Shown here one piece after another: positions 30,813 to 55,550 of a stretch of 64,000 nt of DNA. Source of the stretch: Trichodelitschia bisporula. Taxonomy: Eukaryota. A program made the translations under genes and the position numbers. The stretch spans positions 62,001 to 126,000 of the forward strand of contig ML996711.1 of the NCBI GenBank assembly GCA_010356995.1, read 5' to 3'. The notes under the pieces are model-generated. The model did not search any database and had not been told where the DNA came from. It worked only from the letters and a program-made list of their open reading frames with translations. The stretch's first letter is position 1. Each line of letters starts with the position of its first letter.

Positions 30813-31219
30813 TTTGTTCAGCAGTGATGTGATGAGGTGGGTGAGTTGGTGGAGGTTGGAGTACTCCGTAGTTTGCGGGGCAGTAAATTCACGGCGCCGC
30901 GAGTGGGATGTGGCGTGGGCAAATCTTCGGCTGCTGCCTGAGAAACCGGGTCCTAAACTGCTACATAAGCGGCGTTTATTAAGCGCTCTAGCCGCATTTG
31001 AAGTTGTGTGCCACTCATTTCACCTACTGTACTTCCTGTACATCACTTGTAAGACATGTTCATTAAGTTTCATGCATTCACTGTGCCCTGCATTATCTAC
31101 GGAGCTCCATCGAGTGCTAAAAATCATCGTGAATCTTCGAAAATCAACGTCAAATCCATGACAACTATTCATACTTAAAGATGTAAGTGAGGTGAGCCGT
31201 CCCCACCGCGCAGTATCTG

Positions 31220-34200
31220 TTATTGAGTGGTGTAGCCGGCAGCATCGCCGCCCTCGTCTCTTGCCTTCTCCTCCGTCGGTGAATCACCAATAGGGGTTCC
31301 CACTGATTCCGAGCTTGCTCCCTTTTCTTCCAAGTCGGAAGCTCCTGTCTGCCGCCTCGCAACACGACGATAGTACACTCGCTTAGCCCACTTCCAGCTT
31401 TCACACCCCCCAAAGAAGATGATTGTTTCAATGACCACAATCGCCCATTCCCATGTGATGCCTTGGTGCTTGAATACCTTGTGGTTGATCACGGGAATGT
31501 AGAGTATCGGGAAAACAGTTACGAACCCAGCAACGATAGCCCAGAGCAGGAATGGGTTCCGCCGGCTATCTTCGACCCAGTTGGTGAATACATGCCACCA
31601 GCGGTACCCCGGTCCGCGCGGCTGCTGGCGAAAGAAGGAGCGGCGGAAGTTTACCATTTCCCAGGCCAGGAAGAGCGCAAACCATGTGAGGCAGACGAAG
31701 GTTGTCGCTCGAGCGCGGAACACAAGATCGCACTCGGCTGAATAGGCATCGTTGCAGTTGTGGCCTGTTCAAGTTATTAGCGGACAAATGCAATGTCCAT
31801 GTGGATCAACATACCAAGGTTGCCGTCGCCAAAGCCATACATAACAAGAGAAAACGCAGAAAGGCAAAGGGCCGCCATTAAGACTCCATACACCCCCATG
31901 TCGGCAAGCAGTTCAAAGGAAAAGATACCGGTTTTCAGCTGTCAAGCAATCAGTCTCTTTGTGTCTGACACTGACTAGACCAACTCACATCGTGGGGCGG
32001 ACGATCCATGATATCCGGGGCAGCAACTTCCATTCCAAGACCCATATCCGGCAAGCCACCAGTAGCCTATTGATATCAGCGCTGCCGCTATGATTTCGAT
32101 GGTTGGGGGAAACATACCATGATTACCCAAATGATCTCAACCGGAGAAAGGGGATACACCGACATGCCTTCGTCATCTTTGAAAGCTAACCCAACGAGGA
32201 GAGTTATTGCTTGAGCAATATTTTCGGCCAAAACGTGGAGGACGAATCTCTTGATGTTGTCGAAGATCCGACGGCCTTCCTCAATGGCGTTCAAAATGGA
32301 CGCAAAATTATCATCCGTCAAAACAAGATCCGAAACATCCTTGGCCACGTCACTTCCAGCTTGTCCCTGTTGAAGTCGAAATTAGCAGTTGGTCTTCGTG
32401 GAGGCTGGGTGTCCTACCATTGCAATGCCAACATCCGACTTGACAAGCGAAGGCGAATCGTTCACACCATCACCAGTCATGGCAACAAACCGCTTGCGGC
32501 GATGAAGCGCATCAATCATACGAACCTTGGTCTGCGGCGCACAGCGGGCAATTACATACGGCAAAACAGGCAATTCGTCGACTTCCTTGTCGCTCAGCTT
32601 GTCAAACTGGGCAGCTGTCATTACGAGAGCCTCGGCAATATCACCGCGCAGCTTATTCGTATCCTTCGGTAAGATGCCGACCTGCTTCGCAATGGCACTT
32701 GCAGTCGCCGGATGATCGCCCGTCAGCATATGGACAGTGATGCCAGCGCGGCCACAAGCGGCCACAGCACCCTCAGACTCAGGCCGCGGAGGGTCGTACA
32801 ATCCGATGAGGCCAATGAAGGTTAGGTCTTTCTCAACCTCCGCACGCTCTAGGTTGGTGTAGTCTTCGACATTAGTGCGCGTCCATTCCGCACTGGCAAG
32901 ACACAGCACGCGGAGGCCCTGGCTGGCGAGCATATCAACACTTTGGCTGATAGTTTCTGAGATGTCGTCGGAAATTGGCCCTGCACTGTCGCCCCCGCTC
33001 CCTTGGATGCCGGTGCAAAGCGGCAGAACGCGCTCCACGGCACCTTTGGTGAACACCTTTCTCTTGGTGGACCCGTCGATGTGTTGTTCGTAGACCACGG
33101 ACATGCGTTTGACATCGGAATCAAAGGGGAACTCGACGAGAGGGCGCCATTCTCCTGATTTATTGTCGTCATGTTCACCGACAAGGCGCGTCCGGTTCCA
33201 GTTGAACCGCGAGGCGAACACCTGGATGGCAATCTCAGTAGGATCACCCCGAGTCTGCCACTCGCCTTTGGCGTTTTTCAGCACACGAGCGACATTGGCA
33301 AGGGATGCAATGTTCATAAAGCGCTCCGTGCAAGGCTGTTGGCGGACGTGAGCACCGGAGATGACATCGTCGGCCTCCACCACGGATTGGCTTGCAGATT
33401 TGCTATCCACAGGTGCCCCTGGATGAAAGGTGATTTCCCCCTCGGTCGGGTCGATCGGGTTTGAGCTGCTGCCGACGTGGTACGTTCCGTGGCCAGCGAC
33501 CCAGGCTGCTTTGGCCACCATGCGGCCTTGTGTAAGCGTTCCGGTCTTGTCGGAACAGATGTTCGTCACGGCACCAAGTGCCTCCAGGCTGTCCAGCTTC
33601 CGGACGAGGACATTCCGCTTCGCCATCCGCTTCATCCCGACGGACATGGTGATCGTAAGCACGACGATCAGGCTGGCTGGAATCATGCTCACGCCGGTGG
33701 CAACGGCATAGATGACGACCTCCTGGGCGGACGAGAACTTGTTCGCTGCTTCCACAATCACCGCAAAGATGACTGCGACGAAGAACAGAAAGACCGCCAG
33801 CTGCGACAGCTTCCGATGGAGGGGCGTCCCAACGTTGATCCCAAGAAAATTACCAACGAGATCTCCAGCGGTAAGTGTCCATGCTTCCAGATAGCGGTGC
33901 ACACCGGCTTTTCCCTCTGCGTTGCGCTTCACCGGTCGAACTCTCGAGTCACCTCCCTGGAGTGCCGCAGCGATTTTGCCGATCTCGGTTCTCATGCCCT
34001 GTTGATATGAATACTTGCGAGTCAGGCGGATCGAGCATACTTACGATAGCGATGACGACACCTTTGGCACGACCCTTGCTAACCACCGACGACGAGAAAA
34101 CCATATTGAGGCGGTCTCCAGCACCGGTCTCAGGATCAAAGGTAGACTGAGATTCCTTTGCGACAGGCAGCGATTCGCCAGTAAGTAGAGCTTCGTCCGT

Positions 34201-36802: not shown

Positions 36803-37844
36803 ATGTCTAAGGTCGCTCTCATCACCGGCGCCACGGGCAAGCAAGGTGGCGCCGTCGTCTCGGCCTTGCTCGGCGCGAAGGCGCCTGGGTACACCATTCT
36901 CGGCCTCACCCGCAACCCGGAGTCCGCATCGGCGCAGAAGCTTGTGGCGAAAGGCGTTAAACTCGTCAAAGGCGACATGAGCGATTCTGCTGCCATCTTC
37001 GAGGAGGCTAAGAAGGTGGTTTCTGAGCCCATCTGGGGCGTCTTCAGCGTCCAGGTATACCTCACCGCTTGACAAAGCCAATTGGCGCTTTCCCGTATAT
37101 TCAAAGACCAACAATATCTAGATGCCGCCAATGGGAAAAAGCGGAGCTACACAGATCGAGGAGAATCTGGGCAAGGCGCTCATCGACGCGGCGTTAGCGA
37201 ACGGCGTCAAGGTGTTTGTTCAGACCTCCGTCGACCGCCATGGCGAGAAGTCCATAGACAATCCAACCGATGTCCCGCACTTCATCAGCAAGCACAATAT
37301 TGAGAAATATCTCATCGAGAAAGCTGGTGACAAAATGAGCTGGACGATCCTGCGCCCCGTAGCTTTTATGGACGTGAGCATCCCCCCACCCGGTCAGCCC
37401 TTGGTGTCATACTGACAACAGTCTCAGAACAGCACGCCGGACTTTGGTGGCAAAGCCTTCCACACCGCCTGGAGGACACAGGTGAAGGATAAGCCTCTGC
37501 AGCTCGTCGCGGTCAAGGACATTGGCTGGTTCGGCGCACAGGCTCTGCTTCACTCTGATGAAGATGCCTACAAGAACAAGGCTATCAGCCTTGCGGGTGA
37601 TGAGTTGACCTTCGAACAAGCCAACGAAACCTTGAAGAAGTTCACTGGCACAGATCTTCCACAGACTTATGGTTTCGTGACCTCCGCCTTGTCCTGGGCG
37701 ATCAAAGACCTTGGCCTTATGTTCCGATGGTTTTACAATGAGGGCTACGCTGCCAACATCCCAGAGCTGAAGAAGCTGCACCCGGGCCTGTTGAACTTCG
37801 AGCAATTTTTGGAGCAGGAGAGCAAGTATACGGCGAAGCCTTGA
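36803..37844 (+). CDS. NmrA-like NAD(P)-binding (atypical SDR) protein, 3 exons
   Basis: Exons 36803-37054, 37122-37373, 37428-37844. ITGATGKQGGAV Rossmann motif, LTRN, VPHFISK, TILRPVAFMDN. Confidence 0.92.
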
Positions 37845-39196
37845 GCTCTGATTGGTATTTGCATGGCGAAAGGGCAAGGTTGTGCGGTAATGTCTACTAA
37901 ATAGCAACTGCCATGGGTTGGCTTGATTTTCTCGTTCAATGCAGTTATCTCACCTTCTGATTCCGGAACTTCTGCCAGTTTAGCTACCGACCTCAAGAAG
38001 GATCGGTACTCCGCCGCATAGCCCACCGTGAGCAGAAGGGGAACCGGTCGCCGTATAGGATGATGGGCAAGGGCGGCCTTGTGCACTTGCTCAACAGTCT
38101 TCGAGTAGTACTCGGAGGAGCTCATGAGCTTGTCAAACTCGTCCCGACGCTCTTGTCCGAGCAAACTGAGCATAGCAAACACTCTGTCGCGCGGGTCCGT
38201 ACACTTCTGGCGCTTCCAGATCCACATCAACTCGGGCAGGGTCCAGGCGCCATGCTTAGTCTTGTGATTTTGCATGATGAAGAGGCCCTGCATGACGTTG
38301 TAGGCGGGCATCTGGCCGAAATCCCGACCCTGCTGGTACATCTTGCTGACGAGAAAGCTTTTATAGCTGCGCCAGGCCTTCTCGCGCTCGCCGAGGTAGA
38401 GGACCACAGCCTTGGCCATGGACAACTCCTGCACGATCCACAGCCGCTCCCAGTACGTGCACTGCGCCGTCGCGAAGTTGAGCTTCATGTCGTTTTCAAG
38501 CGCCTCATCGTCGCACGGGCCGAGCCACGCCGCCACCAGCCCGGCGTAGTAGTAGACATGGTCCATGAGGTTAACCTGGTGACCGCGTTCCGAGAGGTTG
38601 CTCTGATTAATACAAATCTGATCGATCCAGAACCAGAGGGAGTCTTCGACGACGACGTCCGGCGGCACCGTCGCCGCACCGATTGTGTTCCCGCGCAGCG
38701 CGAGCGCGAGCAGCCGGTGGCTCGTCCGCGGCTTGCAGAAGGCCTTGAAGCAATCGGCGAGGTTCTTGCGGATGAAGAACGGCTTCCCGTTCACGGTGAT
38801 TTCGTGCTCCGCCGGCCCCGGACCCCACTCGTATGACAGCGCGACGTACATCGGTGCGTCTTCGCGCTCGAATACGCTCATCGCACCGCTGATCGCGCCG
38901 GTTTTGGGGTCCTGGTGCAGGCGCACGAGCCGGATGGAGCCTAAGGGATCGGGGAGTGGGAGGCCGGCGTAGACGAGCTTGTTGATGGGCGCGGTTGGGT
39001 CTACGTCTGCCGGGGCGCTGGCATGGTTTTGCTCTGGAGTTTGTTAGCGGAATCCCGGCTTGTGGGAGCTGGCATGCATGCCTTCGGTCCATCTCTTGTG
39101 ATAGTCGATGATGTCGCTCTCCTTGAGCTCGAGAAGGCCCATACTCTCTTTGAGACGGCCGAGCTTGGTGGTCAGTGCCGGGTTTGGAGTCTCCAT
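37745..39196 (-). CDS. Heterokaryon incompatibility (HET) domain protein
   Basis: HET blocks SIRLVRL, YVALSYEWG, FWIDQICINQ, QVNLMDHVY, YWERLWIVQEL and CTDPRDRVFA. Exon 1 39082-39196 joins exon 2 (39033 downward) via a 48-nt GC-AG intron. The 3' end overlaps the NmrA gene and is uncertain. Confidence 0.88.
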
Positions 39197-40797
39197 CGTG
39201 ATGTCAGTTTGGCGGGCAGGCTGATTGTCTGATACTGAAGAAAAGCTATGCGGAGCATAGCACTATCACAAGATTGAGGGGTTGCTCAATGTATGCTCTG
39301 GCGTGGGGGAGCTTGCCGCGGTGGGTATACGAGTGCTATCAACGAAATGCAGACCAAGCCAGCTAAAGATCAGAGAACCGATGTACAAGAAAGGTCAGGG
39401 AAATCCAGGCTTTTAGCCAGTTGACATCAGGTTGCCTTTCGACGTGTTCTGCCTGTGGCACTGCCCTGGCCGTTTCAGCCAACACCAGCTGAGGCCGTGA
39501 TCCCGATTGGGCTTAGCCATCGACGCTTGCATATGCATAGCCGGCGCGTAACGACGACCTGTCATGGGGTTTGTACTATACCGTGCCTTATGCCTCCACG
39601 GCCTCTCACCAAGGCAGATTCCAGAGGCAGTGCTGTTCTTGTAAGGCCAAGCTCAAGAAGATAAGATCAACAGTCTGTGTTGTTCATGCTTGGACTGGAC
39701 GCTAGAACTAGTGCTCGTTGGGTCTAGGCGGTGAACAAGTCGGAGGCCACTCACTTTTGAATGATGGGAGTGCGGGAGTTTGAGACGTGTGTGGCCGAGG
39801 ATCTAGAACTAGAACTAGTTCTAGACCCAAGTAGTCCAGGCGAAGTCGTGCATAGTATCATTCAGATCACAGATCATACGAGGAACGCCGTGTTGGCGTT
39901 CGATCTAGCATCGTGTCGCGGGAACTGAAGGAGGATGTTGTATGGGTATTGGATGGTCGGATCTCTGTTCACCATACTTTTTAGCGAGCAAGCGGGGTCC
40001 ACGATGTCAGACCGTGTGTTTTTGGGGTTAAAGGTGGGGCCCAGGAAACCTTCTCTTAACGTCGCATCGCTCGGGTCCCTTCGATAAATTATGTGCGCGT
40101 CCGTATAATAGCACGCGATGCTACCCACGTACTGGATTCAACAATATATGGAATGTACGACTGCTGGACGATGCAGTTGAGGGTATCACAGAATCGCCAA
40201 TTCTTTGTCCCGACAGGTCGCACCAGCTGCAAGATGGCTGCACTCTTCCGCCTACTCGAGAATAGTAACGGAGTGACGACCGAAAACTCAGAGACCTCCG
40301 AGATGCTTCAAACTCACTTCCCAAGCTCCGAAGGATGGCCGGATTGACTCATCGTCATGCCACAACAGGTACAACGGATCTATGTGAGGCAATGAGTTCT
40401 CCTTGCTGGCTGGACTTTGGCTACGCCTAGAAACTCGCTAAACTTCCATATCTGCAGATGAATCTGGCCGATTACCGGGGTTGCAATCGACTCAGTAAAG
40501 CGTTGCCAGTCTGCCAGTCTAAAGTTCCCTGGCAATGAGGCTGATTCCCCAAATTCGGCCAATATGATGAGGTTCTCGCATCGTAGACGCCAGTGACTAA
40601 GCACAAAGCCGCCGTCAAGCCTAGTCTGGCCCACCTCTTCAGCCGCATGGCCCTGCGCCGATAATAGGCGCAGCCGGGTGGTCAGGGGGCATGCGGGGGG
40701 GTTTCTCATGCCTTGCGCTCCTCTCGAGTTGGCTTTGGCGCGACCTCTCGTCCCTCCCTTCCTACCTCTCCGGGCGATCTAGGAGTTCATCGCAACA

Positions 40798-41225
40798 ATG
40801 GACTCACGTTTCGCTAAAAAGGCTCTCAAGTTGACTAAGGACATCTACGCTGTTGTCCGCGACGGGCCTGAGCAGCAGGGTCCGCACGGCCAGCCAGGTC
40901 AGGGCCAGACACAGCCCGTAAGTGCGCCTGGCCAGACAGCGGGATTTGCTCCGGCGCAGCACCTTTCAACCCAGTACCATACTGCTCCGCCTCAGCACCA
41001 TCAACAATATGGCCAGTTTGGCGGTTATCCAGCGTACCAGGCCTCGCCGGTTTACCAAAGTCCGCCAGCTCAGTCATTTGCGACTCCGAGTGCAGGCCAG
41101 CCCGGATACTTCCCACCCCCTCCTCTTCAGCATCAGCAGCAACAGCAGCAACCGCAGCCTCAGTACCAGCAGTACCAACCTCAGCAACAGCCTCAGCAAC
41201 AGCCTCAGCAACAATACCAACCTCC

Positions 41226-41268
<43 letters not shown>

Positions 41269-44200
41269 TGGGCTCCGCAATATGCTCCCCTACCCTCCGT
41301 GACCCCACAACCCGCAAATCAGCATGCATGGGCCACCAATACGGCCGCGACTCCTGTCCATCAGTATTCTTATCCGAACCCCCATACACCTGCACCCCAG
41401 ACTCCGGCATCCTACAACCAGGCTCAGCAAGCTGTGGACCATCGTCCACCCCCAGCGCATGCGTACTCTTACCCTGGGACACAAGCTAATCAAGGCCAAG
41501 TCCCAGTGCCGACCCCGCAGCCGCATTCTGTCAGTGCGTACGTCTTACCAACGCTTGCTTCAACGCCCCAAGCGGCCCCGCCTTATTCAACTCCCCCGCC
41601 TCAGCCGACTGCCCAGCCGCAGCCACAACCGCAACAATCGACGCCGCTCCCGCCGCGTGCCGAATCGGTGCCTGTTTTCGGAGCGAATTTGACGTCGGTG
41701 TTTGTGGCCGAACTGTCTGCCGAGGAACCGGCCAAGATTGCACAGCAGCAGACATCCAGGGACAGCCCTAATCAGGGCTATTCGAGTCCGGCAAAATCGG
41801 ACACTGTTCCGCACCAGCCTGCTGAGCAGCCGACCGGGAGAGCCGAGCCTTCCCAAATTGCTCCTGCGAACCCTCCCGAGCCGCCTCAGTCGCAGAACTT
41901 GACTCGACCGGCCACTGCTTCTCCCCCTCCCACTCAACAGCCTGCTCAGACGACCGTCCATCAGCCTGCAGCCGCTGCATCTCCCCCTTCGGCTCCTTCG
42001 TATCAGCCGCATGCCGGCATAGCCTCGCCCCAAGCTGCTCAAGCACACCAGTATCAACCGGCGCAGCCGCAACAACCCCATACCGTGTCACCACCGCCGC
42101 AGAATGCAGGGTATCAGAGCCCCCAGCAAAATGTCGCCATATCGCCCCCGCCCAGTTCCCAGCCATATCAGTCACCTCAAAATACCATATCCATGCCGCC
42201 ACCCCCGAGCCAACCCTATGCTCCGCCTCCTGGAAACCCAAGTGCACCACCACAATCGCCCCATGAGCCATACGGACAGCTGGTGCAAATTCAAGCACAG
42301 ATGGGATCCATGACTTTGAGCCCGAGCCCCTTGACTGCCAGACCGTATTCCCCAGCGCCTCCACTGCAACCATACGTACCTGCTCCAGCAAACCCGGTAC
42401 CGGCATATTCTCCCGCACAACAACAACAGCTGTATTCCCCTGCTCCCACGCATCAGCAAGGTGGGCTGTCCTATCCATATTCACCGCTCCAGCAAGCGCC
42501 GCAGCTCTATTCTTCTCCCCCACCGGTCCAGCCGGCACAGTCGTATGCTCCGTCGCCTCAGGTTCACACGCCTGCACCGACTAACCTGCCCTCATGGATG
42601 ACTCCACCCAATCATGCTCAACAGCAGTTGGTAGTATCCCCGCTCGCTCCGCCCGCCGGTTATGCCAGTAGCCTGACACCCATGATCTCAACCATGAGTC
42701 TACCCTCACAGCATACGCTACCACCCCCAACACCAACACCCGCTCCTACCAGTACTCCTCTCAGCATGCCTCGGGAGAAGGTTATGCGTGTCAGCAAAAA
42801 TGGAGAGCCTACGATCCGCAAGATTCTCTCGCTGGATGGTGGTGGTGTGCGCGGACTCTCCACGATCATCATTCTTGAGCACATCATGCGGATGCTGGGC
42901 AAACAGCGTGGCGCGGTTCTGGAACCCTGGCAGGAATTTGATATGATTGCGGGAACCAGTACTGTAAGAAATGGCCTTTCTGCCATTTGTCCGCCTGCTA
43001 ACCATATCAGGGTGGGCTTATCGCCATCATGCTCGGTAGACTACGCATGTCTCTTGCGGAATGCAAAAAGGCGTACCTCAACTTGTCCAAGGCCATTTTC
43101 ACTCCTGTCCGGAACAAAGCCAATGTACCAGGGAAAGTTCTTGACTTCCTCAACGCCAATGGCAAATTCGACTCGCAGCCTCTTGAACATTGTATCAGAG
43201 AGATTCTCAAGGAGCAGAACAAGCCAGAGAACGAGCTGCTTAAGGAAGATGACCCTGACGCTTGCAAAGTCTTTGTCTGCGCTGTCGAAGGCAAGAACGA
43301 CGCCGCTGTTCTGATCCGCTCCTATGAGTCCATGGAGTACGATGGGTTATATGACATTTGCCAGATATGGGAGGCTGCTCGTGCCACGTCGGCTGCATCC
43401 ACCATCTTTGAGCCGATTGAAATCGGTCCGTATAGACAAAAGTTTGTAGATGGAGCTCTGAGACTGAACAATCCCATCGACCGGGTCGATGATGAGTCTC
43501 GAGGTAAGCTGGCCCTCTTCTGATTGCGCTTACTAAAATTGCCAGATCTCTGGCCCGGACAGGATCGGATGATCATTAGTATCGGTACCGGTGCGGCTCC
43601 GGGTCAAGACGTAACGGGCAATCTTTTTGACCTCGCGCGTGCTTTGAAGCGAATCGTCACCGATACGGAGGAGCGAAACGATAACTTCCGGCGCAAGCAC
43701 CCAGAGATGATTCAGAACGGCCGACTGTTCCGCTTCAATGTCCAGCACGGACTAGCAAGCGTTGGTCTTGAGGAGTATCAACACGTCGACTCGATCGCAG
43801 GCCACACAGGGAAGTATCTAACCCAATTCGACACCAGACTGGATGTGGAGCGCTGTACCGCGGCTCTGAAGAATGGTGGCCAGCGGTTGAATTACATTGC
43901 CGGCGCAGGTACGAACTAGATGAATGTGACAGGACGGGGCTAAGGCAGAGTAGAACTGTCATCATATCTCGAAACAATGAGACTGTCAAACGTATGCTGC
44001 GAATTCTGCGAGAGCTGCTTGCGAGGTAGGATTGTGATTCTCACCTTAAACGTCGAGCTAACAACCAAGGAATCGTATATAACAGCACCGCGTTCATCTG
44101 CACAGCCGAAAACTGCGGCATGACCCTCTGCGCCAGGTGCCACTCCTCCCACGACGACAAGCACATCCCCAAGATGCTGCGCTGCGAGATGGTGCAATGG

Positions 44201-45466
44201 ACGCCAAACATGAAAGACGTAGCCAGTGCCGCTTCCTGCCGACACTGCGCCAAGTTCGCAAAGGTGCGTTGGCAGTGCCGCGACTGCAATGTCGCGCTTT
44301 GCCGCGAATGCTTCACCTACCCCGACCGGCGGGCAACGTTCTTCGAGGGCCACCAGAAGGACCGGCCCGACGATCGCGCCTTCGTGTCTCTCTTCCCACC
44401 ATACTGGAAAACAAATGAGCTGCGCAAACACGCACATGGCCGCTGCAGGTGTGTCGATGTCACCCCTGCTGTCATCGGGCACTGCGACCGCTGCTACGAC
44501 TGTAAGTCATCCACCAAGTGTTTACGTGTACTGATGTCTCAGTTCTTCCTGTCGGGACCCGAGAATACTGGTGCCGTACTTGCCGCTTCGAGTATGATTG
44601 CTCTGCCTTGCTGTGCCTTGAATGCTTCAAAACCGAAGACCCAACGCATCTGTCCCAGCACGAGTGGAGCACGATGGACATATTCTTCGAAGACGGCGGG
44701 CCGGACAATTTTGCGAAGGCGTTGGACGTTGCGGTGCGGTGTCCGCAATGCCCAGGGCTGCGTATGTTCCTCCCTACCAGTTCCTTATCGTAAGTGCTTA
44801 TAGGTTGCAGAAATCCCGTACACCGAGCAGTACCTGCATCCGCACCTGAACCTGCAAATGGTTCTCAATCCAATTATTACCGAAGTCGTGCGCTGGGTTC
44901 ACTACACGTCTTGTGACCGTAAACGGCGCAAGCGCGACGGGCAGCAATACCCCGATGCGACGTATATACAGTGCAACTTGTGCAAGATGTGTAAGTGTGC
45001 TTTGAGCCCCTCCCCAGCCGCATGCTAACGGGTTTAGATCTCTCGTATGGCCAGAAGGCTTCTTTCTGCCTCACTGAAAATTGCCTCGTCGCCTTCTGTA
45101 CCTCCTGCCATGCGGCAAAGCGCGAGCGCCACCGGCACAGGTTATACGAGATTGAGCTGAGGCGCCCAGTGGATGTCAACCCGAATATGCGCCAATGCGA
45201 CTCCTGCGGCCTACGTGAGTCCACCCTGCTATCCGCAAACCTGAAGTTTCGAAACTAACCGGCGTGCAGAGTACATGACGCAGAACTTCCGTGGCCTCTG
45301 GTGCGGGACGTGCAATAACTATGACATCTGCTTTGGCTGCTTGACCAAGATATCGGAAGGCACGCTTACTAATCTAGACGTTTCACACAAGGGTCTCTTG
45401 CTGGGCACGTGTAGGGCCTCGCACTGGATTTTCTATGTGGTTACTGTGAAGAAGCCAGACGTGTGA
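40798..45466 (+). CDS. Q/P-rich region + patatin-like phospholipase + tandem ZZ-like zinc fingers, 9 exons, ~1432 aa
   Basis: Exons 40798-42963, 43011-43503, 43546-43908, 43954-44025, 44070-44501, 44543-44761, 44811-44990, 45038-45214, 45270-45466 sum to 4299 nt in one open frame. Patatin motifs LSLDGGGVRG, GTST|GG, ARATSAA, DGAL. C-terminal CxxC..CxxC..CxxC..H..H units. Confidence 0.8.
41227..41265 (+). repeat. (CAG)13 microsatellite encoding part of a Q14 tract
   Basis: 13 perfect CAG followed by CAA in exon 1 of the patatin gene. Confidence 0.97.
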
Positions 45467-45638
45467 GATGGTTTGGGAACGGAGTTTGGAGGCGCTGGGA
45501 GGTTGTGATGATAGGGTGCATAGCATCAGGCATGGGTTTTATGAACGTATATTATGAACCATCATGACTCAGAGAGCTGCTCGTTATTCGGGGGAGCCTT
45601 TCTTCTCCTGCACAAAGCTCTCCACAGCCCGGAGAAGA

Positions 45639-45788
45639 CGTGTGCGTGGAGAATCGTCAGGGTGCTCCACCTCCTGTTCTTCATCCTCGTCAACAGTGGC
45701 ATGTTCTTGCCAGCGTGTGCGCGGAGAATCTTCAGGGTACTCCCACTCGTGTTCTTCGTCCTCGTCATCAGTCGTACGTTCTTGGCAG
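45639..45788. repeat. Two-copy imperfect 75-bp tandem repeat
   Basis: 45639-45713 vs 45714-45788 (cgtgtgcg[t/c]ggagaatc[g/t]tcagggt...gttcttg[c/g]cag). It encodes a 25-aa acidic repeat on the minus strand. Confidence 0.9.
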
Positions 45789-46053
45789 CATTTGTGGCAT
45801 TCGCAGCTATTAAACCAAGTCAGTTCACGTTCCACTAGGCAGGAGTTCAATATTGTCCACGAAATATGATTTTTTTTTGCCTTTTCAACGCCTCGTGCCG
45901 TGCCATCTAGTTCTAATCCCCCGCCCTGAGGGAATCACAAAACGAGAAACCAGTCACCCGTACACCAGCCCTAAAATTAAACGCCATAGCCTGTTACATA
46001 CACATATCTACGGGACCCATATCCGTAGCAGCACTCCGGCGTGCCGACTGAGC

Positions 46054-47319
46054 TCACACAGTACCAGGACCGTCCTTCGTCCACCCCTTGCGCTTCATGG
46101 ACTCCTCAATCGCCGTCCAGATCTGCTCGACGACCTCGCGGTCGCGCCAGCGGCTAGCTGTACCCTGGGTAGGAGACCACTTGTCGACAGAGACAACCTT
46201 GACCGAATGGCCCCAGCTGCGCACTTCAGCTTGGGGCGGCTCGCCCGCCCAGCCGACGTACACGCCAAGCACATGGGCGAACAGGTCCTGCGGCGTAGTC
46301 CACTTGTACGGCTTGAACTGCCAGGTCTGGCCCGTGGTGAAGACGGCGACGACGCGCTGCCAGTAGTCCGGCTTGAAGTGCTCGATGGACTCGACGAGGA
46401 TGAAGCGAAGAGGGCGGTGCGCGTCGAATGAGGGCATCAAGCGCTGCGTGTGCAGGATGCTGGCTCCCGCGCTGGACCCCGCGGCGGCGCTGTTCGGTGG
46501 AACGAACTGGCCGTTTTCGAGGAATAGCTTCGCGTTCGTCATGCGCACGAGCGATGTGGCAGATGGCGAGATCAGGATAATCGGCTGCATGGCACGGGCG
46601 GGCTTCTTCGCGTTCGGGCCTGAAGGGTTCAGTCCGGCGGACGGGGCAGGTTCCGATGGCTTTGCCTTGCTGCGGCCGTAGTACTGATCCGCGATGTCGA
46701 GTACCCAGCTCCAGTCCTAGAGACATTAGTATGATGGTCAAGGGCCGCAAACAAGGTTACATACCTGAGCCTTGCTCCCATGAAGCATGGTGTCATGATC
46801 GAGCATAGTGCGCTCGCCAGCGTAGATGGCCTGAAGACGCTCATCCATGCGACCCGGAGCAAGACCAGACGCAGACGGCATCAGAATGCTCGAATCAGCC
46901 TCAGCGTCACCAGTCGGCGGAACAATGTACTCGGACTCGGTCTGCAGCGCCTGTAGCCACTGCTGTAGATCCTGGCGCTCGGCAAAGACGAGATTCTGCA
47001 CCGAACCACCAGCATTGCCCGGCGCAGCAAGCGCATCATTCAGCTTCTGCGCCTCAGTGATGTAAGCCTGAACTGCGTCGTCCTTGCGCTGCCACGCGAA
47101 GATGATGCTGCGGAGGTTGGCCGCCTGACCCGAGGCGCGGAAGCGGGTCGCCGCATCGAGGGGGACAGAGACAGGGCCCGTCGCAGTGCGGAATATGGCA
47201 AACTTGGCCTTCGCGATGTCGGTGACGGTGTCCTTTGCGTCGTTGCTGGTGGACAGGGCCGGGTCGTTTTGGCCAACGACCGCGGCGCGGAGGAGATCCA
47301 GAGGGTCGGTGCTCACCAT
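46054..47319 (-). CDS. CDC73: Paf1 complex subunit Cdc73 (parafibromin), 2 exons
   Basis: Exons 46765-47319 and 46054-46716. DPLDLLR N-terminus, IYAGER, PIILISPSATSL, RVVAVFTTGQTWQFKPYKW, RWRDREVVEQIW. Confidence 0.95.
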
Positions 47320-47852: not shown

Positions 47853-49433
47853 TCAGGCATTCTTTCGGCCGTGATACACGCAGATGCCCCGGCCTCCGCC
47901 CTTGTGCTTCGGGCTCAGCGGACACAGGGGACTCCCCGGCAAATGCTCTGGCAGGTCCCATTCAATTGACCGGAGCTCGTCGTCCCGCAAACCAAAGTGA
48001 TCAACCTCCTCTTCTTCCACGTCCTCGAACACATTCTCCATCGGAATGCGCCAACAATCGCCATCTTCCGAAAATCGCGAGGATGAACCGCGACTCCAAT
48101 TACGCTCCAGACCACCCGGCTTTGCGTCTGGCGGCTGGGGAAAGGGTGTGTGGAACGTCACCCTCTCGGCATTTCGCGCTCCTTCATCATCAATATGCGG
48201 AACAAAGTATCCCTTTTTGCTGCTTGTCGATGGAGTCTCCGGAACCGCCGCCGGTGTGAAGCATGCACTCTTAGCGCCGGGGGTGGGTGATAAAACCAGG
48301 CCGGCCCTTAGCCCGATCGACGTCAACGGGGTACGGGGGGTTGAAGGAGTTCCTGGTGTATGCGATGACGAGACACTCGTTCCCGAGCTTTGAGACCCAG
48401 ACAAGATACGCTTCCACTTCGGCCGCCAATTCCCAGAAGTACTGACCCGCTCCCCACCCGTGCTTGCCCGTCGGGAAGGAGGAAGGCGCTCCGCGGACGG
48501 AATAGTCATGCTTCCTCGGCGGGTTTCTGGCGCCGGCGAGATTACTGGAGAGAGGGGCCTTATGGCGTTTTCATCCGTCGGAGATACGAATGGAGGCGTA
48601 TCCTGCTCAGCAGCTGGGGAATGGATCCCAGCCACGGGAGTTGGAGGGCCAGTTGACGCAGTATCGGACCAAAAGCTAACACGCCCATTGCGAGCAGACG
48701 GTGTCTCCAGCGGGGCCTCCGACTCAGGAGTACGGGCACCTGAAGCAGAAGAATATTTGCCGTCGCTGTGATCGGAGTGGCGGAGTGAGCGTTGACGGAC
48801 CACGTTGAGGAACCTCGACGACTTCTCTTTGGGGCGATTTGGCTCCGAGAGGGCCGGGCGTGGGAGACTAGGACGGCGTTCGAACTCCGAGACAGTACTA
48901 ATACTTGGTGTTTCGTACAGATCGGTGTCCGTGCCGTCATCCGAACGCCAACTCGACATTTCGGGATCAGGTTCGGATACTCCAGAAGCGCATCGAGAGA
49001 CGGAAGGTTGGCGCTTCTTGGTATACCTCATCAGTCTCATGTCAGGGAGACCGCGAAATAGCTTGCGTGCGCCTTGGAGAGTGGTAGTCCTCCATGCCAG
49101 TGGCGGAACGTCTATAGTCGAATCTACGGTGAAGGAGGTTGGCGACCTGCACGGCTGGGGTGGATCTGGTGGCGCCAGAGCGGTATCTGCGGTAGACTGG
49201 GACCACCGTGGAGAAACGGCTCTCTGGTCAGACATTGCATTGGAGCGCCTGAATTCCCCTCCTCGCAGCGACGGCGATGCATGCAGCGCGGCCCCTGTGT
49301 TTTGTATGTTCTCATCCAACAGAGTGTCTCTCCGCCGGCCGAACCGGTTGGGGTCGGGCGACGGTGGGCTGCTTCGGATGGAGGGCCGCCGTAAGAGAGT
49401 CTCTTGTTTCTTCTCGGACGATGATAGAGTCAT
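47853..49433 (-). CDS. Hypothetical S/P/R-rich protein, 526 aa, with a Cys/His C-terminal motif
   Basis: Long single-exon ORF, mostly low complexity, ending DLPEHLPGSPLCPLSPKHKGGGRGICVYHGR. Confidence 0.75.
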   Translation of the reverse strand: MTLSSSEKKQETLLRRPSIRSSPPSPDPNRFGRRRDTLLDENIQNTGAALHASPSLRGGEFRRSNAMSDQRAVSPRWSQSTADTALAPPDPPQPCRSPTSFTVDSTIDVPPLAWRTTTLQGARKLFRGLPDMRLMRYTKKRQPSVSRCASGVSEPDPEMSSWRSDDGTDTDLYETPSISTVSEFERRPSLPRPALSEPNRPKEKSSRFLNVVRQRSLRHSDHSDGKYSSASGARTPESEAPLETPSARNGRVSFWSDTASTGPPTPVAGIHSPAAEQDTPPFVSPTDENAIRPLSPVISPAPETRRGSMTIPSAERLPPSRRASTGGERVSTSGNWRPKWKRILSGSQSSGTSVSSSHTPGTPSTPRTPLTSIGLRAGLVLSPTPGAKSACFTPAAVPETPSTSSKKGYFVPHIDDEGARNAERVTFHTPFPQPPDAKPGGLERNWSRGSSSRFSEDGDCWRIPMENVFEDVEEEEVDHFGLRDDELRSIEWDLPEHLPGSPLCPLSPKHKGGGRGICVYHGRKNA

Positions 49434-50135
49434 GCAGTCCGATGCTGGTGAAAGGTAGAAGTTATGAGGGTGTGGGACCTGAATGAATTACGGAATAGGA
49501 TCATAGGGGCATAAAAGGTTGAAGGGTACAGGCGATGCGGCTGGCAGTGCGTACATTGGATTGTTCGTTTGACTGAGGCCGAACTGTGAGTTTGCCTCCG
49601 CTTCCGTCGAGACTTCCCTGGTACTAGTGGAAAGGACGTCTGCGGAGGACAGTACTGTCGGACGATACTGCCTCGCCGGCCCCAACCATGGTGATCAAAT
49701 GAACCCATTGATTGAGTACCTGAGAAGGGTCGAGGTCGCTAGGCATTTGGCCTGATACTTACACAATAGTCAGCTGGAAGTTACCTGTATCTGAACATCT
49801 CCGGCCGTATTCCAAATGCAAGAGGCTCTGGTGATGTTGGGATGAGAGAAAATTCTACTCCTGTGTTAACGTGCTTTCCACCAGGTATGTACAGACACTA
49901 CCGAGTAGCAGAACTAAAGGCCTTAAGATGAAGCGCTTGCGCACTATTGCAAGTCATACTTCGCCGCCAGCATCGACAAACCGAGAAGTGAAGTCAGCAT
50001 GTCGTCCCAATTCGAGTGGCAAATAAACGTGACAGGGCGAGCGGGTAAACTGCGCACGGGCCATTGTTTACGCAGGTGTAAACAACCCGCAACTACACAT
50101 CGCGCCGCAAGCAACTCGACATCGCCAACGCCAAA

Positions 50136-53100
50136 ATGCGGATAGTAGAAGTGATAATAGACGTAAGTGCGCTTGGCTTATATTTTTGACGACGCTCACA
50201 TGGGAAAGGGCTTCAAGTCGTACGCCGTACGCACCGTCATCTCCGGATGGTAAGAGCCCCGCACCGCCCACGAAACCGGCTAACGACCAAGGGACGAGAG
50301 TTTCAACTCGATTACGGGCCTCAACGGCAGCGGAAAGTCCAATATCCTTGACTCGATATGCTTCGTTCTCGGCATCACGAACATGAGCACAGTGCGCGCG
50401 CAGAACCTGCAGGACCTGATCTACAAGCGTGGGCAGGCGGGCGTTACCAAAGCTTCAGTCACTATCGTCTTTGACAACCGTGACAAGGCGAAGTCGCCTA
50501 TTGGCTTCGAGGATTATGCGCAAATTTCCGTTACACGCCAGATTGTCCTCGGCGGGACGTCCAAGTACCTCATAAATGGTCACCGCGCGCAGCAGCAGAC
50601 GGTCCAGAACTTGTTCCAGTCGGTCCAGCTCAATATCAACAATCCCAACTTCCTCATCATGCAGGGCCGCATCACGAAGGTACTGAACATGAAACCCGTG
50701 GAGATATTGGCCATGATTGAGGAGGCGGCGGGGACGCGCATGTACGAAGACAGACGAGACAAGGCGATCAAGAGTATGGCCAAGAAGGAGCTCAAGGTCA
50801 AGGAGCTTACGGAGTTGCTGCGCGACGAAATCGACCCTAAGCTAGAGCGCCTGCGGCAGGAGAAACGCGCCTTCCTCGACTTCCAGCAGACGCAGAGCGA
50901 CTTGGAGCGCCTGACGCGGCTCGTTGTTGCACATGACTATGTGCGCGGCAAGGAGAGGCTCCGGGCTGCGACCGAACAACTTGAGGCGAAGAAGCGTCGG
51001 TCCGCTGAACTCGAGGAGTCAGCAACACGGCTGAAGAGCGAGATCGCGCTGTTGCAGGAAGATATCAAGAATATCAAGGCGGCCCGCGAGAAGGAACTCC
51101 GCAAGGGAGGCAAGTTTCAGGCGTTGGAAGATGAGGTCAAGACGCATTCTCACGAAATTGTTCGGCTCACGACGGTCATTGACCTCAAGAAATCGGGCAT
51201 GAACGAGGAGAAGGACAAGCAAAAGAAGCTGCAAAAGACCGTAGAAGAACTTGAGGTGCAGCTCAAGGAAAAGAAGCTTCTGCATGAGAAGCTGCAGGAG
51301 CAGTATGACGCTGCCCGCGCGGATCTCGCGAAGCAGGCCGAAGAGGCGGAGAAGAAAGAAGAACTGCTTCAGAGCCTGCAGACCGGAATCGCATCCAAGG
51401 AAGGCCAGGAGAGCGGCTATCAAGGGCAACTTCAAGACGCGCGGAATCGCGCAAGCGCAGCGGCCACGGAACAGGAGCAAGCCAAGCTTAAAATCACGCA
51501 TCTCGAGAAGCGCATCAAAGAGGAAGAGCCCAAGGCGGAGAAGGCAAAGAAGCTGAATTCTGGTCTCCTTAAAGACCTCGAGGGCCTCCGGACGCAGGCC
51601 CAAAGGCTGGAGGCTGATCTCGCTAAGCTTGGGTTCGAACCCGGCAAGGAGGAGGAAATGTATAAAGAGGAGGCCCAGCTGCAGCAGCGCATCCGCGAGC
51701 TGAGAGAGCAGGCCGATGGACTCAAGCGCAGAGTTGCCAATATCGATTTCAATTACAGCGATCCCTCGCCAGACTTTGACCGGTCGCGGGTCAAGGGTCT
51801 CGTTGCGCAGCTCTTCACTATCGACAAGCAGCACCTCGCTGCCGGGACTGCGCTCGAGATCTGCGCTGGCGGCCGGTTATACAACGTGGTGGTTGACTCT
51901 GCGTCCACGGGTACGGAGTTGCTGAAAAATGGTCGATTGAAGAAGCGTGTCACCATCATCCCGCTTGACAAGATCGCGGCCTTCCGTGCGTCCTCGCAAA
52001 AGGTTGGAGCGGCCCAGAATATTGCCCCTGGCAAAGTCAACCTCGCCCTCTCGCTCATCGGGTATGAGAACGAGGTCAACGCCGCTATGGAATATGTCTT
52101 CGGATCTACGCTTGTCTGCGATGATCCCGTTACGGCCAAAAAGGTCACCTTCGATCCTGCGGTACGGATGAAGAGTGTCACCCTCGAAGGCGACGTCTAC
52201 GATCCGTCGGGAACTCTGTCTGGAGGCAGTGCGCCGCAATCAAGTGGTGTGCTTGTTACGCTTCAGAAGCTTAATGAGATCACCACGGAGCTGAGCAAGC
52301 AGGAGCGGGCGCTGAACTTGCTGCAGTCGACCATGGCGCGGGAGAAGAAGAAACTCGACACGGCGCGCAAGCTGAAGCAAGAGCTCGACCTGAAAGCACA
52401 CGAGATCAGCCTAGCAGAGGAGCAAATCAGCAGCAACTCGTCCTCCTCTATCATTCAGGCCGTCGTGGAAATGAAGACGCAAATCGAGCAACTCAAGCAG
52501 GACATCATGGATGCACAAAGGCGGCACGACGAGGCGGCCAAGGACGTCAAACGGATTGAGCGCGACATGAGCGAGTTCAGCAACAACAAGGACAGCAAGC
52601 TGGCCGAGCTCCAGACGTCGCTCGACAAGCTCAAGAAGACCCTCGCCAAGGGCAATGCGGCTATCAAACCTCTGCAGCAGGAAATGCGCGACGCGATGCT
52701 CGAGTCAGAGCAGTGTGGCGGCGACCTGGCGGCTACACAGGAGACTCTTCGCGACGCGGAGGTCACGGTTGCCACGCAACTGGAAGAGATTAACGGCTTG
52801 CTTGCCGAGCAAACACGTGTTAAGAACGAGCACGACCTCGCGCTTGCAAATCTTCAGGATGAGCAGGCAAAGCTGTCGAGTTTCGATGAGGAGCTTCGTG
52901 CCCTTGACGAGGCCGTGCGGAACAAGACGGCACTAGGCGCGGAGGAAGCCCTTGAGGCGCAGTCGCTGGGGCATGTCCTTGAAAAGCTGGAGAAGGAGAC
53001 GCAGAGTGCCCAACAGATGCTTACCTCGCTTGCGGAGACGCATGACTGGATTCCGGACGAGAAGGAACAGTTTGGTCGTGCGGGAACAGCATACGATTTC

Positions 53101-53811
53101 AAGCGGCAGAACATGTCGGAGTGCAAGGCAACGCTCAAAACGCTGACGGAGCGCTTCCAGGGGATGAAGAAGAAGATCAACCCCAAGGTGATGAACATGA
53201 TTGACAATGTGGAGAAGAAGGAGGCTTCACTAAAGAACATGATGCGCACGGTCATCAAGGACAAGCGGAAAATCGAGGAGACTATTGTCAGTCTGGATGA
53301 GTACAAGAAGGATGCGCTGCACAAGACATGGGAGAAGGTCAGTGCCGATTTTGGCCAGATCTTCAACGAGCTGCTGCCCGGCAGCTTTGCGCGGCTCGAT
53401 CCGCCCGAGGGCAAGACGATATCCGACGGGCTGGAGGTCAAGGTTTCGTTGGGCAAAGTGTGGAAGCAGAGCTTGACGGAGCTCAGCGGTGGTCAACGGT
53501 ACTTTTGTCTACTTCCCTCCTACCATCCACAAGCTAATCTCCGCAGGTCCCTCATTGCCCTCTCCCTTATCATGGCCCTCCTGCAGTTCAAGCCGGCGCC
53601 CATGTATATCTTGGACGAGGTGGACGCCGCGCTCGACCTCTCGCACACGCAGAACATCGGCCGGCTGATTAAGACGCGGTTCAAGGGCGCGCAGTTTATC
53701 GTCGTCAGTCTCAAGGACGGCATGTTCCAAAACGCGAATCGCATCTTTCGCACGCGGTTCAGTGACGGCACGAGTGTGGTACAAGCACTGACTCCGGCGG
53801 ATCTGCGGTAG
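50136..53811 (+). CDS. SMC2: Condensin subunit SMC2
   Basis: Exons 50136-50162, 50209-50249, 50292-53498, 53547-53811. MRIVEVIID|GFKSY, Walker A GLNGSGKS, hinge VTLEGDVYDPSGTLSGG, signature LSGGQR, Walker B YILDEVDAALD, QFIVVSLK (SMC2-type). Confidence 0.97.
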
Positions 53812-54762
53812 GTTCGGACATGTTTTTAAAGTTTGCCGTGAGCGGGAGTTTGGCGTTGGATGGGGAAGGTGGATTGGCTTGGGATGGGAGGGTCATGTTG
53901 GATGAGCAATGGCATATGAAACGCGATCGGGGAGCGATATCGTCACGCAGTAATGAAATGTGTTTGAACACGACGCGTCGCTTTGCGCTCACACACTCTT
54001 CTACGCGCCTAAGCTACATAACGGCCAGTCGCGCTCCTACGTACCCGGAGCAACCATCCCCGAGTGCTTAAGTAAACCTCAGCATTTGGATCGAGATCCA
54101 CCTCCTGAATAGTGCGTACTGCATACAGCCCTGATTCAGCCCGGCGCACCCGGCTAGCAAACCGAGCGCCCTCAGAGACTCACAGGGGAAGGAGAGTGGG
54201 CCTGGGTCTTGCATGCGGGCGCCTCCTTGAGCCTCACATCGCATCCCCTTGGCAAGGCCGACGAATCAGAGCCCGCGGCGCTCAGGGGTAAGCCTGTGGC
54301 GCTGGGTCCAGGGCTGAAGGGGGAAATCTTTGTTTTTGGGGGCCGTGTGCATTCAATATTGTGTAGGACGACGTGGTTCGGTTTTCTTCGCTTCTGATTT
54401 TGAGGATCGAGTTCGGTGGATGAGATGGGGGGAGGGGGGTGTGTTCTACGGATGTATGCTCTCGAATGCACTGGTGGACTACTACTACCTCGTAGCTCAG
54501 CCTGATGGCAGGAGCGAACGAAAAGTCCATAGCGCGCCTCGACCGGAGTCGGATGACGCGGAGGGCGCACCCGCAGGTCACACCGAATATTGGAGGCGCC
54601 CCGGGGTTGGGCCCAATGCGAGGGTTTGGGTATTCCGTGGCGGGTGGCCTTGTGCGTACAAAGGGCTGGGACGCGACGCGTGGGCGAGTGCAGCGCAGAC
54701 TTTCTCTCCTTCCACCAAAATCTTCGCTCCTTACAGTCCTTCAGAGTTCCTAAAGTATCATC

Positions 54763-55550
54763 ATGCACGCATCTATCCTCCTCGCTACGTTCGCCGCGCT
54801 TGCGGCCGCGAAACAGATCCCCATTGTGGTGGGCGATGGTGGTGACACCTTCTCGCCTTCCAGCGTTACGGCGGAGAAGGGTGATGTGGTTGTGTTCAGC
54901 TTCAAGGCGGGCAATCACGGTGTTGCCCAGGGCGACTTCGACAAGCCATGCCAGCCGAGCGCGGGCGGGTTCTGGACTGGGTTCAAGAACGATGGCACGT
55001 TCAGTGTCACGGTCACCGACCCAAGCAAGCCCATGTGGTTCTACTGCCCGCTGAACAAGCATTGCCAGAATGGAGTAAGTTGCTGTTGTCAGTGATTTGA
55101 GATGAGTGCTAACAGAATGATAGATGGTCGGCGTGATCAACCCGTTCGTCTCCCAGTAAAACCTTAACACATGATGAAAGGCAACCAGCTAACCTCAGAA
55201 GCTCCGGCGGCACCCTCGATGCGTACACCGCGGCCTCCAAGAAGGCGTCGAGCAACACTCCGCCTTCGGGCGACCCGACTGTGGACGCTGGCTCCAGCGA
55301 CCCCGGCTCCAGCGATGCGCCGGGCACCTCGAGCGCTGATGGCTCGTCCGCAAGAACCACCGCCGTGGACTCGGCGTCAACGTCGGCGCAGGCAACGAGC
55401 AAGGCGACGGACTCGGCTACGGGCACCAAGGTCGACGGGTCTAGCGCTACCGGCCCGGCTGCCTCGCCGAAGGCGACTGGGTCTGGTGCGGGAGCACTGT
55501 CCGTGCCCGGTGCTATGGCCCTCATTGCAGGGGCGGTGGCTTTGCTCTGA
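54763..55550 (+). CDS. Secreted cupredoxin-domain protein with S/T-rich stalk and probable GPI anchor, 3 exons
   Basis: Exons 54763-55074, 55124-55143, 55199-55550. Signal peptide; TFSPSSVTAEKGDVVVFSF; type-1 Cu-like ligands GNH..YCPLNKHCQNG|MVGVIN; hydrophobic C-terminal tail. Confidence 0.88.

Follow-up and report, generated by a model that had tools for sequence, protein, structure and literature searches.

Does the segment from 40798 to 45466 of the window (the whole stretch of DNA analysed here, 64,000 nucleotides (nt) of Trichodelitschia bisporula contig ML996711.1) hold a scatter of short open reading frames (ORFs), or a single gene that joins a patatin-like phospholipase to a row of zinc fingers? 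An initial annotation of the window had joined the fragments through eight introns of 41-55 nt into one 4299-nt frame encoding 1432 amino acids (aa). The window DNA is of eukaryotic type, with a G+C content of ~53-60% and short introns, and our analysis recovers the same frame: removing eight introns from 40798-45466 (+) leaves 4299 nt with one stop, at the end. Exons 1 to 9 lie on the + strand at 40798-42963, 43011-43503, 43546-43908, 43954-44025, 44070-44501, 44543-44761, 44811-44990, 45038-45214 and 45270-45466. The intervening introns 1 to 8, all eight of them GT..AG, occupy 42964-43010 (47 nt), 43504-43545 (42 nt), 43909-43953 (45 nt), 44026-44069 (44 nt), 44502-44542 (41 nt), 44762-44810 (49 nt), 44991-45037 (47 nt) and 45215-45269 (55 nt). 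This is, almost certainly, one expressed nine-exon gene of a filamentous ascomycete, and its protein has the order first proposed: a helix-like N-terminus, a low-complexity disordered region, a patatin domain and an array of Cys/His units.

The joining of the two halves is seen in transcripts. Two public sequencing runs, X1 and X2, taken from one sample of one study and with a library type guessed as RNA, contain assembled contigs that show zero differences from the window sequence. A single 4247-nt contig of X1 covers 41275-45855 and a single 4111-nt contig of X2 covers 41352-45826, each without exactly the eight introns; because all introns are absent while the genomic copy has them, the contigs are of spliced RNA origin. 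They show transcript structure and carry no expression-level information. On each of them the patatin and zinc-finger parts are joined, and the junctions 43908/43954 and 44025/44070, which the initial annotation had singled out for checking, are crossed in both runs. The first 417 nt of the coding sequence lie on a separate contig (40458-41214), because search and assembly break at a CAG repeat at 41215-41274.

These contigs also bear on a competing gene model in which a patatin gene stops near 43919 and a zinc-finger gene of its own lies next to it. An in-frame stop at 43917-43919 would be read if intron 3 were retained, and several public gene models (P0068 and P0078) end at or before that stop. 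However, transcripts ending near 43919 with a separate 3′ transcript were not seen; single contigs of the two runs cross 43908/43954 and all later junctions, four relatives (P0012, P0067, P0071 and P0191) hold both parts in one model, and a homologous metagenome locus, L001, is colinear. The two-gene model is hardly credible on this evidence: the patatin part and the zinc-finger part are one transcript.

The patatin-like phospholipase domain spans approximately aa 677-1007 (42826-43908, +) and is cut by introns 1 and 2. Positions 1-36 of the Pfam profile PF01734 match in exon 1 (E = 0.005) and positions 37-189 in exon 2 (42 bits, E = 1.5e-10), so that exon 2 alone exceeds the profile threshold of 27.7 bits; the orthologue P0012 scores 83.3 bits. 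The profile match stops at 43484, and a conserved C-terminal extension continues to 43908. Patatins are recognized by a G-G-G-x-[KR]-G loop, a G-x-S-x-G nucleophile and a D-G-[AG] motif. All three catalytic motifs are present and intact, as first noted: the oxyanion-hole motif DGGGVRG at aa 680-686 (42835-42855, +; found in 15/15 family sequences covering the site), the nucleophile motif GTSTG at aa 719-723 (42952-43013, +; cut by intron 1, with Ser in 14/15 family sequences) and the catalytic Asp motif DGA at aa 869-871 (43449-43457, +; DG[AG] in 16/16). With these motifs intact, the protein is predicted to be an active patatin-type serine-aspartate phospholipase. P0071, a full family member of 821 aa that departs from the family at the nucleophile, may represent a dead-enzyme lineage or a sequencing error; its close relative P0076 is cut before the site.

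By sequence profile, the nearest solved structures are the phospholipase CapV of cyclic-oligonucleotide-based anti-phage signalling systems (CBASS), which is activated by cyclic GMP-AMP (E = 1.8e-19), and then related CBASS lipases, with human iPLA2-beta (E = 1.1e-11) and potato patatin (7e-8) further down. To place the domain among fungal patatins, we built a maximum-likelihood tree from 121 domains, comprising the best 120 matches and the window sequence with no rows dropped. Seventeen of the 121 rows form one clade (Shimodaira-Hasegawa-like approximate likelihood ratio test, 99), which we call the family: six rows have the finger array, ten are truncated, and P0078 sits on a long branch. 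Most of the remaining 104 rows are of the type of nucleotide-binding oligomerization domain (NOD)-like receptors (NLRs), with matches to NACHT or other NTPase domains and with ANK, TPR or WD40 repeats; some carry PF01734 alone. In this sample, and in a tree without an outgroup, the family lipase domain is the sister group of fungal NLR patatin domains, to many of which the window domain is 40-50% identical, bearing out the kinship with NLR effectors proposed in the initial annotation. The midpoint root serves for drawing only, and which arrangement is older, NLR patatin or finger family, is not read from such a tree.

Beyond the lipase, the cysteine-rich C-terminal third (aa 1008-1432) contains five units with eight Cys/His ligands each, at the places first claimed, and a CxxC...HxH knuckle; this knuckle and a CxC...H element are additions to the original description. 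Unit 1 (aa 1022-1063; 43995-44164, +) is cut by intron 4 and has a C-x4-C second knuckle. Unit 2 (aa 1088-1126; 44237-44353, +) is ZZ-like and uninterrupted. The CxC...H element (aa 1157-1169; 44444-44482, +), whose Cys, Cys and His columns are near invariant, lies directly upstream of the first CxxC knuckle of unit 3, itself ZZ-like and cut by intron 5 (aa 1170-1215; 44483-44661, +). Between units 3 and 4 stands the C2H2-like CxxC...HxH knuckle (aa 1242-1260; 44740-44845, +), cut by intron 6, with a pattern that is kept in P0012, P0067, P0191 and P0045. Unit 4 (aa 1303-1342; 44972-45138, +), cut by intron 7, again has a C-x4-C second knuckle and conserved ligands, and the ZZ-like unit 5 (aa 1362-1407; 45196-45388, +) is cut by intron 8.

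Are these units ZZ domains, as the initial annotation had suggested? The ZZ pattern consists of eight Cys/His ligands in the order CxxC ... CxxC ... CxxC ... H..H, and this order can be read directly in units 2, 3 and 5, where the second knuckle is C-x2-C. No unit reaches the Pfam ZZ threshold (PF00569, 21.4 bits): the top values are 21.0 bits for unit 5 of P0067, 19.3 bits for window exon 9 and 17.5 bits for P0052, the window scores being obtained with four of the five units cut by introns, and at E <= 0.1 no ZZ match is found in P0012, P0045, P0071, P0076 or P0069. By the Pfam rule, the window protein is not a certified ZZ protein. The B-box thresholds (PF00643 and PF22586, 24.1 and 27 bits) are likewise not reached, with 13.8-16.3 bits in the window protein, P0012, P0045, P0007, P0076 and P0010 (15.8 bits for window unit 2), and other sub-threshold Pfam scores in the array go to zf-UBR (15.2 bits) and C1_2 (17-20 bits). 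Family profiles were also compared with PDB sequences. The best match of unit 2 is the ZZ domain of CBP/p300 with two family profiles (E = 1.4e-4 from 70 sequences, 7.5e-4 from 11 other rows), followed by the Ada2 ZZ (E = 0.0076), TRIM B-boxes, PRT1 and KCMF1. With the whole-family profile, unit 3 touches the UBR1/UBR2 UBR box (E = 0.005-0.014), and units 4-5 the ZZ of fission-yeast Nbr1 (E = 0.0067). Unit 4 itself matches weakly (C1_2 at 19-20 bits, HERC2 ZZ at E = 0.12), and a phmmer search with P0010 against PDB sequences gave no match at E up to 10.

Structural comparison relied on models of the orthologue P0012, not of the window protein. Unit 2 is modelled with a predicted local distance difference test (pLDDT) score >90 and unit 4 with a score <40. 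Units 3 and 5 superpose on domains of p62, Nbr1, Ada2 and HERC2; we take the aligned ranges in the large chains to be ZZ domains, and the structure titles say so for p62, HERC2, BIG, ZZZ3 and CBP. Foldseek against the PDB returned no match at E <= 0.001 for either model, and the tightly modelled block of units 1-2 had no structural match as a whole block, which is not proof of novelty. A feature search of the ESM Atlas gave matches that all score <0.9, a mix of unnamed, B-box, AN1 and ZZ clusters that serve as leads only. Taken by unit, the proposed ZZ identity holds in part: a likeness to ZZ domains, in profile or predicted fold, is seen for units 2, 3 and 5, and units 1 and 4 are only generically cross-brace-like. 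We describe the array units as putative double-zinc, ZZ-like cross-brace fingers.

The array could instead be an E3-ligase-like or chromatin-reader module of the RING, B-box or UBR type with a ubiquitin-related or nuclear role, the Q/P region then resembling an activation domain. ZZ domains outrank these types for units 2, 3 and 5, this explanation leaves the catalytically intact lipase unaccounted for, and no nuclear or E2-binding feature was seen, none having been specifically tested; we consider it very unlikely. An E3 module of the RBR/IBR type was considered as well and dropped, having no IBR match in Pfam or among the best 50 matches of each fold search.

The gene structure of the array offers a view of how it may have arisen and why it is easily missed. 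Introns 4-8 are all phase 1, and each lies 2-3 residues past a CxxC knuckle, a pattern that fits growth of the array through duplication of an intron-bearing unit. With introns running through the C2H2-like knuckle and through four finger units out of five, gene calling by single exons or in prokaryote style overlooks the domains as well as the fusion. In an alignment of five full-length proteins, all the Cys/His ligands line up. Identity to the window protein in this set ranges from 60 to 71% for the patatin core, from 27 to 52% for the units and from 7 to 41% for the linkers; the finger array thus diverges faster than the patatin core.

At the other end of the protein, a basic amphipathic segment (aa 1-21; 40798-40860, +) is conserved at the N-termini of family members. 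Its hydrophobic moment is 0.66 against a shuffle mean of 0.29, and for 12 of the 13 N-termini tested, <=3.9% of shuffles reach the observed moment, in a somewhat flattering test that takes the best of eight windows. There follows a P/Q/A/S/Y-rich low-complexity region of ~640 aa (~aa 22-665; 40861-42792, +), in which a CAG/CAA tandem repeat (41128-41268, +) encodes a run of 14 Gln. The region contains none of the PPxY or LPxY ligase-binding motifs, and relatives also carry such a region, varying in length and sequence. Prion-like domains are Q/N-rich, proline-poor and amyloid-capable. Judged against this definition by composition alone, the region (638 aa counted) has 23% P, 19% Q, 12% A, 10% S, 5% Y, 2.5% N and 3.6% charged residues; Q+N amounts to 21.5%, and only aa 101-157 form a strongly Q-rich stretch. 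The term prion-like, used in the initial annotation, poorly suits a region with so much proline and so little asparagine.

How widespread is this architecture? Searched exhaustively by HMMER with exon 5 (143 aa), a set of 1.84 billion gave 66 representatives at 50% clustering with E <= 0.001, of which 27 reach E <= 1e-10. They are highly diverse, and almost all of them are ORFs of exon size (112-280 aa) in environmental assemblies that carry no annotation. The boundaries of these ORFs fall at the intron sites of the window gene; the introns are therefore widely conserved. Exon 5 found no match among longer sequences in a word-indexed search and, used alone, no relative among metagenome contigs. 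Further members came from a search with the patatin region of P0012 and from a cluster look-up, and a second cluster look-up added no named members. P0012, itself one of the exon-5 HMMER matches and a 1059-aa protein from a metagenome-assembled genome of Cirrosporium novae-zelandiae, is colinear with the window protein from the low-complexity region to the C-terminus. Other full or near-full relatives are P0067 (Phylliscum demangeonii, 1020 aa), P0071, P0191 (Exophiala bonariae, 1364 aa) and the N-terminally cut P0076 (696 aa). Compared with P0191, P0067, P0012, P0069 and P0071, the window protein is colinear and 39-50% identical over 593-770 positions. Eight exon-1-type ORFs encode the helix, the low-complexity region and patatin up to the intron-2 site.

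Named members come from five classes of Pezizomycotina: Eurotiomycetes, Lichinomycetes and Xylobotryomycetes, with full or near-full colinear relatives, and Dothideomycetes and Arthoniomycetes, with models that end before or early in the array. Models ending at intron sites are those of P0069 (Knufia peltigerae), P0068 (Peltula) and P0078 (Myriangium duriaei), and the P0070 model (Chrysothrix) leaves the family soon past the first knuckle. Taken together with P0191, these models stop or stray at the sites of introns 3, 6 and 8, or skip the 72-nt exon 4. In precomputed annotation the family members carry only PF01734 and are named hypothetical or PNPLA-domain proteins. Since models are broken at intron sites, the fused architecture is under-annotated in databases. 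By sequence comparison, the gene belongs to a conserved, unnamed protein family.

Two metagenome sequences extend this picture. Contig L001, an independent sequence located in a search with P0115, carries these parts in identical order, and its gaps fall at corresponding places. Some 2.2 kb beyond the last tblastn match of this homologue lies a TPR_10/TPR_12 ORF (E = 5e-15; L001 6526-6960 (-) for the ORF, within a flank that includes 7000-11414), with the TPR repeat type of many NLR-type patatin matches; the remaining 4.4 kb are almost without ORFs of >=75 aa. The second sequence, P0060, is a 413-aa metagenome ORF whose N-terminus is similarly basic and which combines Pro-rich sequence with finger units 1-3. 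It aligns to residues 583-777 of P0067 (E = 3e-12) and has an in-frame insertion at the conserved intron-4 site.

How might such a protein work? Our favoured explanation, in which the anatomy described above serves a lipase that is targeted or gated by its fingers, has as a whole a probability of roughly 0.55. The mechanism taken by itself, which is drawn from comparison with known proteins, is tentative and falls somewhat short of even odds. The patatin domain would hydrolyse membrane phospholipids. To judge from composition, the N-terminal helix would bring the lipase to membranes, and the disordered region would be a long, flexible and multivalent tether. The finger array would be a protein-recognition module like the ZZ domains of p62, Nbr1, p300 and HERC2, a role assigned because ZZ domains are protein or peptide readers. 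By binding particular protein termini or partners, the array would set where or when the lipase acts, and the protein overall would then be a lipase that is gated or targeted by a ligand and has no nucleotide-binding switch.

Several points weigh against this explanation. The nucleophile motif of P0071 is GTNTG, with Asn for Ser, and given this residue catalysis may not be essential in every family member. P0060 seems to be without a patatin domain, which suggests that helix, disordered region and fingers can occur apart from the lipase. The transcript evidence comes from one sample; the structural models are of P0012, and they are poor at unit 4 and at the first knuckle of unit 1. That the helix acts at membranes and the disordered region as a tether is read from composition alone, and the lipase, zinc-binding and ligand-binding functions are all predicted. 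As to the context in which a finger-controlled lipase would act, defence and cell death or ordinary membrane traffic, there is evidence on both sides.

Part of that evidence lies in the neighbourhood of the gene. The transcript itself extends into a 3′ untranslated region (UTR; 45467-45855, +) up to the contig ends at 45855 (X1) and 45826 (X2), which includes a 75-nt tandem duplication (45639-45789; 2.0 copies, 84% matches), and its 5′ UTR contains a 74-nt GT..AG intron (40384-40457, +), supported by the joint 40383/40458 in one X2 contig and in none of X1. Approximately 1.3 kb from the start of the patatin transcript contig, in head-to-head orientation upstream, is a HET-domain ORF (PF06985, E = 4.9e-18; 37745-39043, -). 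This adjacency may be due to chance, HET genes being numerous in such fungi. Downstream, a gene for a Cdc73 C-terminal domain protein (PF05179, E = 4e-52; 45860-46716, -) runs towards the patatin gene from the opposite strand; the RNA contigs of the two genes extend to 45860 and 45855, respectively, so that the transcripts nearly abut 3′ to 3′. Surrounding housekeeping genes encode eIF3g (29701-30888), a P-type cation ATPase (32382-34040), an SMC protein (50284-53811) and aconitase (56537-58654), and two large ORFs, 47853-49487 (-) and 54172-55188 (-), are without a Pfam match. No second copy of the patatin gene was found inside the window.

Could the gene encode, along the lines of the initial annotation, a sensor-effector of innate immunity or allorecognition that does without a NOD? 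The ZZ array would then sense non-self or modified-self proteins, assembly through the Q/P region would replace NOD oligomerization, and the activated lipase would kill the cell. The patatin clade stands beside the NLR patatins, and the closest solved sequence is that of a bacterial immune effector, CapV; the array diverges faster than the lipase, and the 66 representatives of the finger exon are highly diverse. Among the best 120 patatin matches, named family members come from few lineages; all the matches from Fusarium, Alternaria, Podospora and one Aspergillus have other architectures, for the most part of NLR type. The HET-domain gene upstream and the TPR_10 ORF near the L001 homologue point the same way, as does the finding that 17 Sordariales NLRs carry ZZ fingers, the zinc fingers of these NLRs being mostly C-terminal (PMC12258605). 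However, the protein has no oligomerization domain, and with 23% proline its low-complexity region does not resemble the amyloid or prion signalling motifs that are known. Colinear orthologues whose N-terminus and ligands are conserved over several classes suit a conserved role in the cell better than an immune gene of fast turnover, the other neighbours (Cdc73, SMC and aconitase) are housekeeping genes, and the HET adjacency may be accidental. On balance we think this context unlikely.

A bolder form of the idea, which we rate as distinctly less probable still, is that the family forms a class of NOD-less cell-death or immune effectors. A row of ZZ fingers would replace the NOD-plus-repeat sensor, a ligand such as N-termini made by foreign proteases or non-self partners would release the helix-placed lipase, and the P/Q region, in place of a nucleotide switch, would cluster the protein. 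If this were true, the patatin-less P0060 would single out helix, disordered region and fingers together as a sensor scaffold that can be reused.

An alternative is a housekeeping lipase for membrane remodelling or trafficking, linked for example to autophagy or the vacuole. Its array would bind fixed partners or cargo as the ZZ domains of fission-yeast Nbr1 bind hydrolases, and the patatin domains of NLRs would derive by recruitment from an ancestor of this kind. Conservation and colinearity of the family extend over several classes, its ligands and N-terminus are kept, and the window gene is expressed in an ordinary RNA sample among housekeeping neighbours. Yet Pfam shows no PB1, FW or UBA domain in any part, no family member occurs among the best patatin matches from model fungi, and the array varies considerably between relatives. 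We find this alternative doubtful, to the same degree as the immune one. A lipase targeted or gated by its fingers, as favoured here, could belong to either context.

In fungal NLRs and bacterial CBASS, as in plant and animal lipid signalling, patatin lipases are execution domains. To our knowledge, their control outside the NOD framework is poorly understood. The family described here joins an NLR-type patatin to a multi-ZZ-like array, a combination that we did not find in the searched literature: among full-text papers, with subscription journals and supplements outside the scope, none was found that joins patatin to ZZ or B-box fingers. The initial annotation had not recognized the architecture as a described one. 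That stands as far as these papers go, and it does not extend to sequence collections: public databases already contain family proteins, among them those of Exophiala bonariae, Cirrosporium and Phylliscum, without a name and entered as hypothetical or PNPLA proteins, and the architecture is not unique to the window. It has stayed hidden in public proteomes under the label "hypothetical protein" and in gene models that several times end at intron sites. The family provides a defined, expressed case with a clear catalytic mutant in which to ask whether ZZ fingers can be the sensor or targeting arm of a lipase, and it bears on the origin of the NLR patatin domain.

Set beside known systems, the window protein combines features of several. 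In Neurospora PLP-1, cell death requires patatin activity and the NB-ARC P-loop (PMC12881547). With NLRs of this type (patatin, NB-ARC, TPR) the window protein shares the catalytic motifs, a neighbouring position in the patatin tree and a presumed binding module C-terminal to the lipase. Unlike in these NLRs, its lipase is not N-terminal and instead lies behind a helix and a 640-aa disordered region, and its C-terminal module is a zinc-finger array. Pfam finds no NACHT or NB-ARC match in the nine exon translations (E up to 1) or in P0012, P0067, P0071 and P0069 (E up to 0.1), and no TPR, ANK, WD40 or HEAT repeats in the exon translations or the relatives scanned, in agreement with what had been noted from the ORFs; because it is without a NOD and repeats, the window protein is not an NLR. 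The Sordariales NLRs with ZZ fingers are similar in placing ZZ-type fingers at a C-terminal, presumed sensor position, and they differ in keeping a NOD and carrying the fingers beside canonical repeats. Section 14 of PMC12258605 names no combination of patatin with ZZ.

ZZ readers (p62/SQSTM1, Nbr1, p300/CBP, Ada2, HERC2 and KCMF1) share the eight-ligand cross-brace pattern with the window units, which differ in scoring below the Pfam ZZ threshold and, for units 1 and 4, in their C-x4-C second knuckle. The ZZ domain of p62 has an acidic groove, made up of D129, N132, D147 and D149, through which it binds N-terminal arginine (PMC6197226). Fission-yeast Nbr1, which is reported to employ ZZ domains for cargo, also has several ZZ domains in one protein, in parallel with the window array. 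Of the partner domains of such readers, PB1, FW, UBA, HAT and HECT, Pfam shows none in the window protein, which, because it is without PB1, FW and UBA domains, is not an Nbr1/p62-type receptor. CapV, finally, is a single-domain bacterial enzyme activated by a cyclic dinucleotide, unlike the window protein, for which there is no sign of a nucleotide ligand; it is the closest solved sequence to the family patatin and, as the window protein may be, a lipase that stays silent until a signal arrives.

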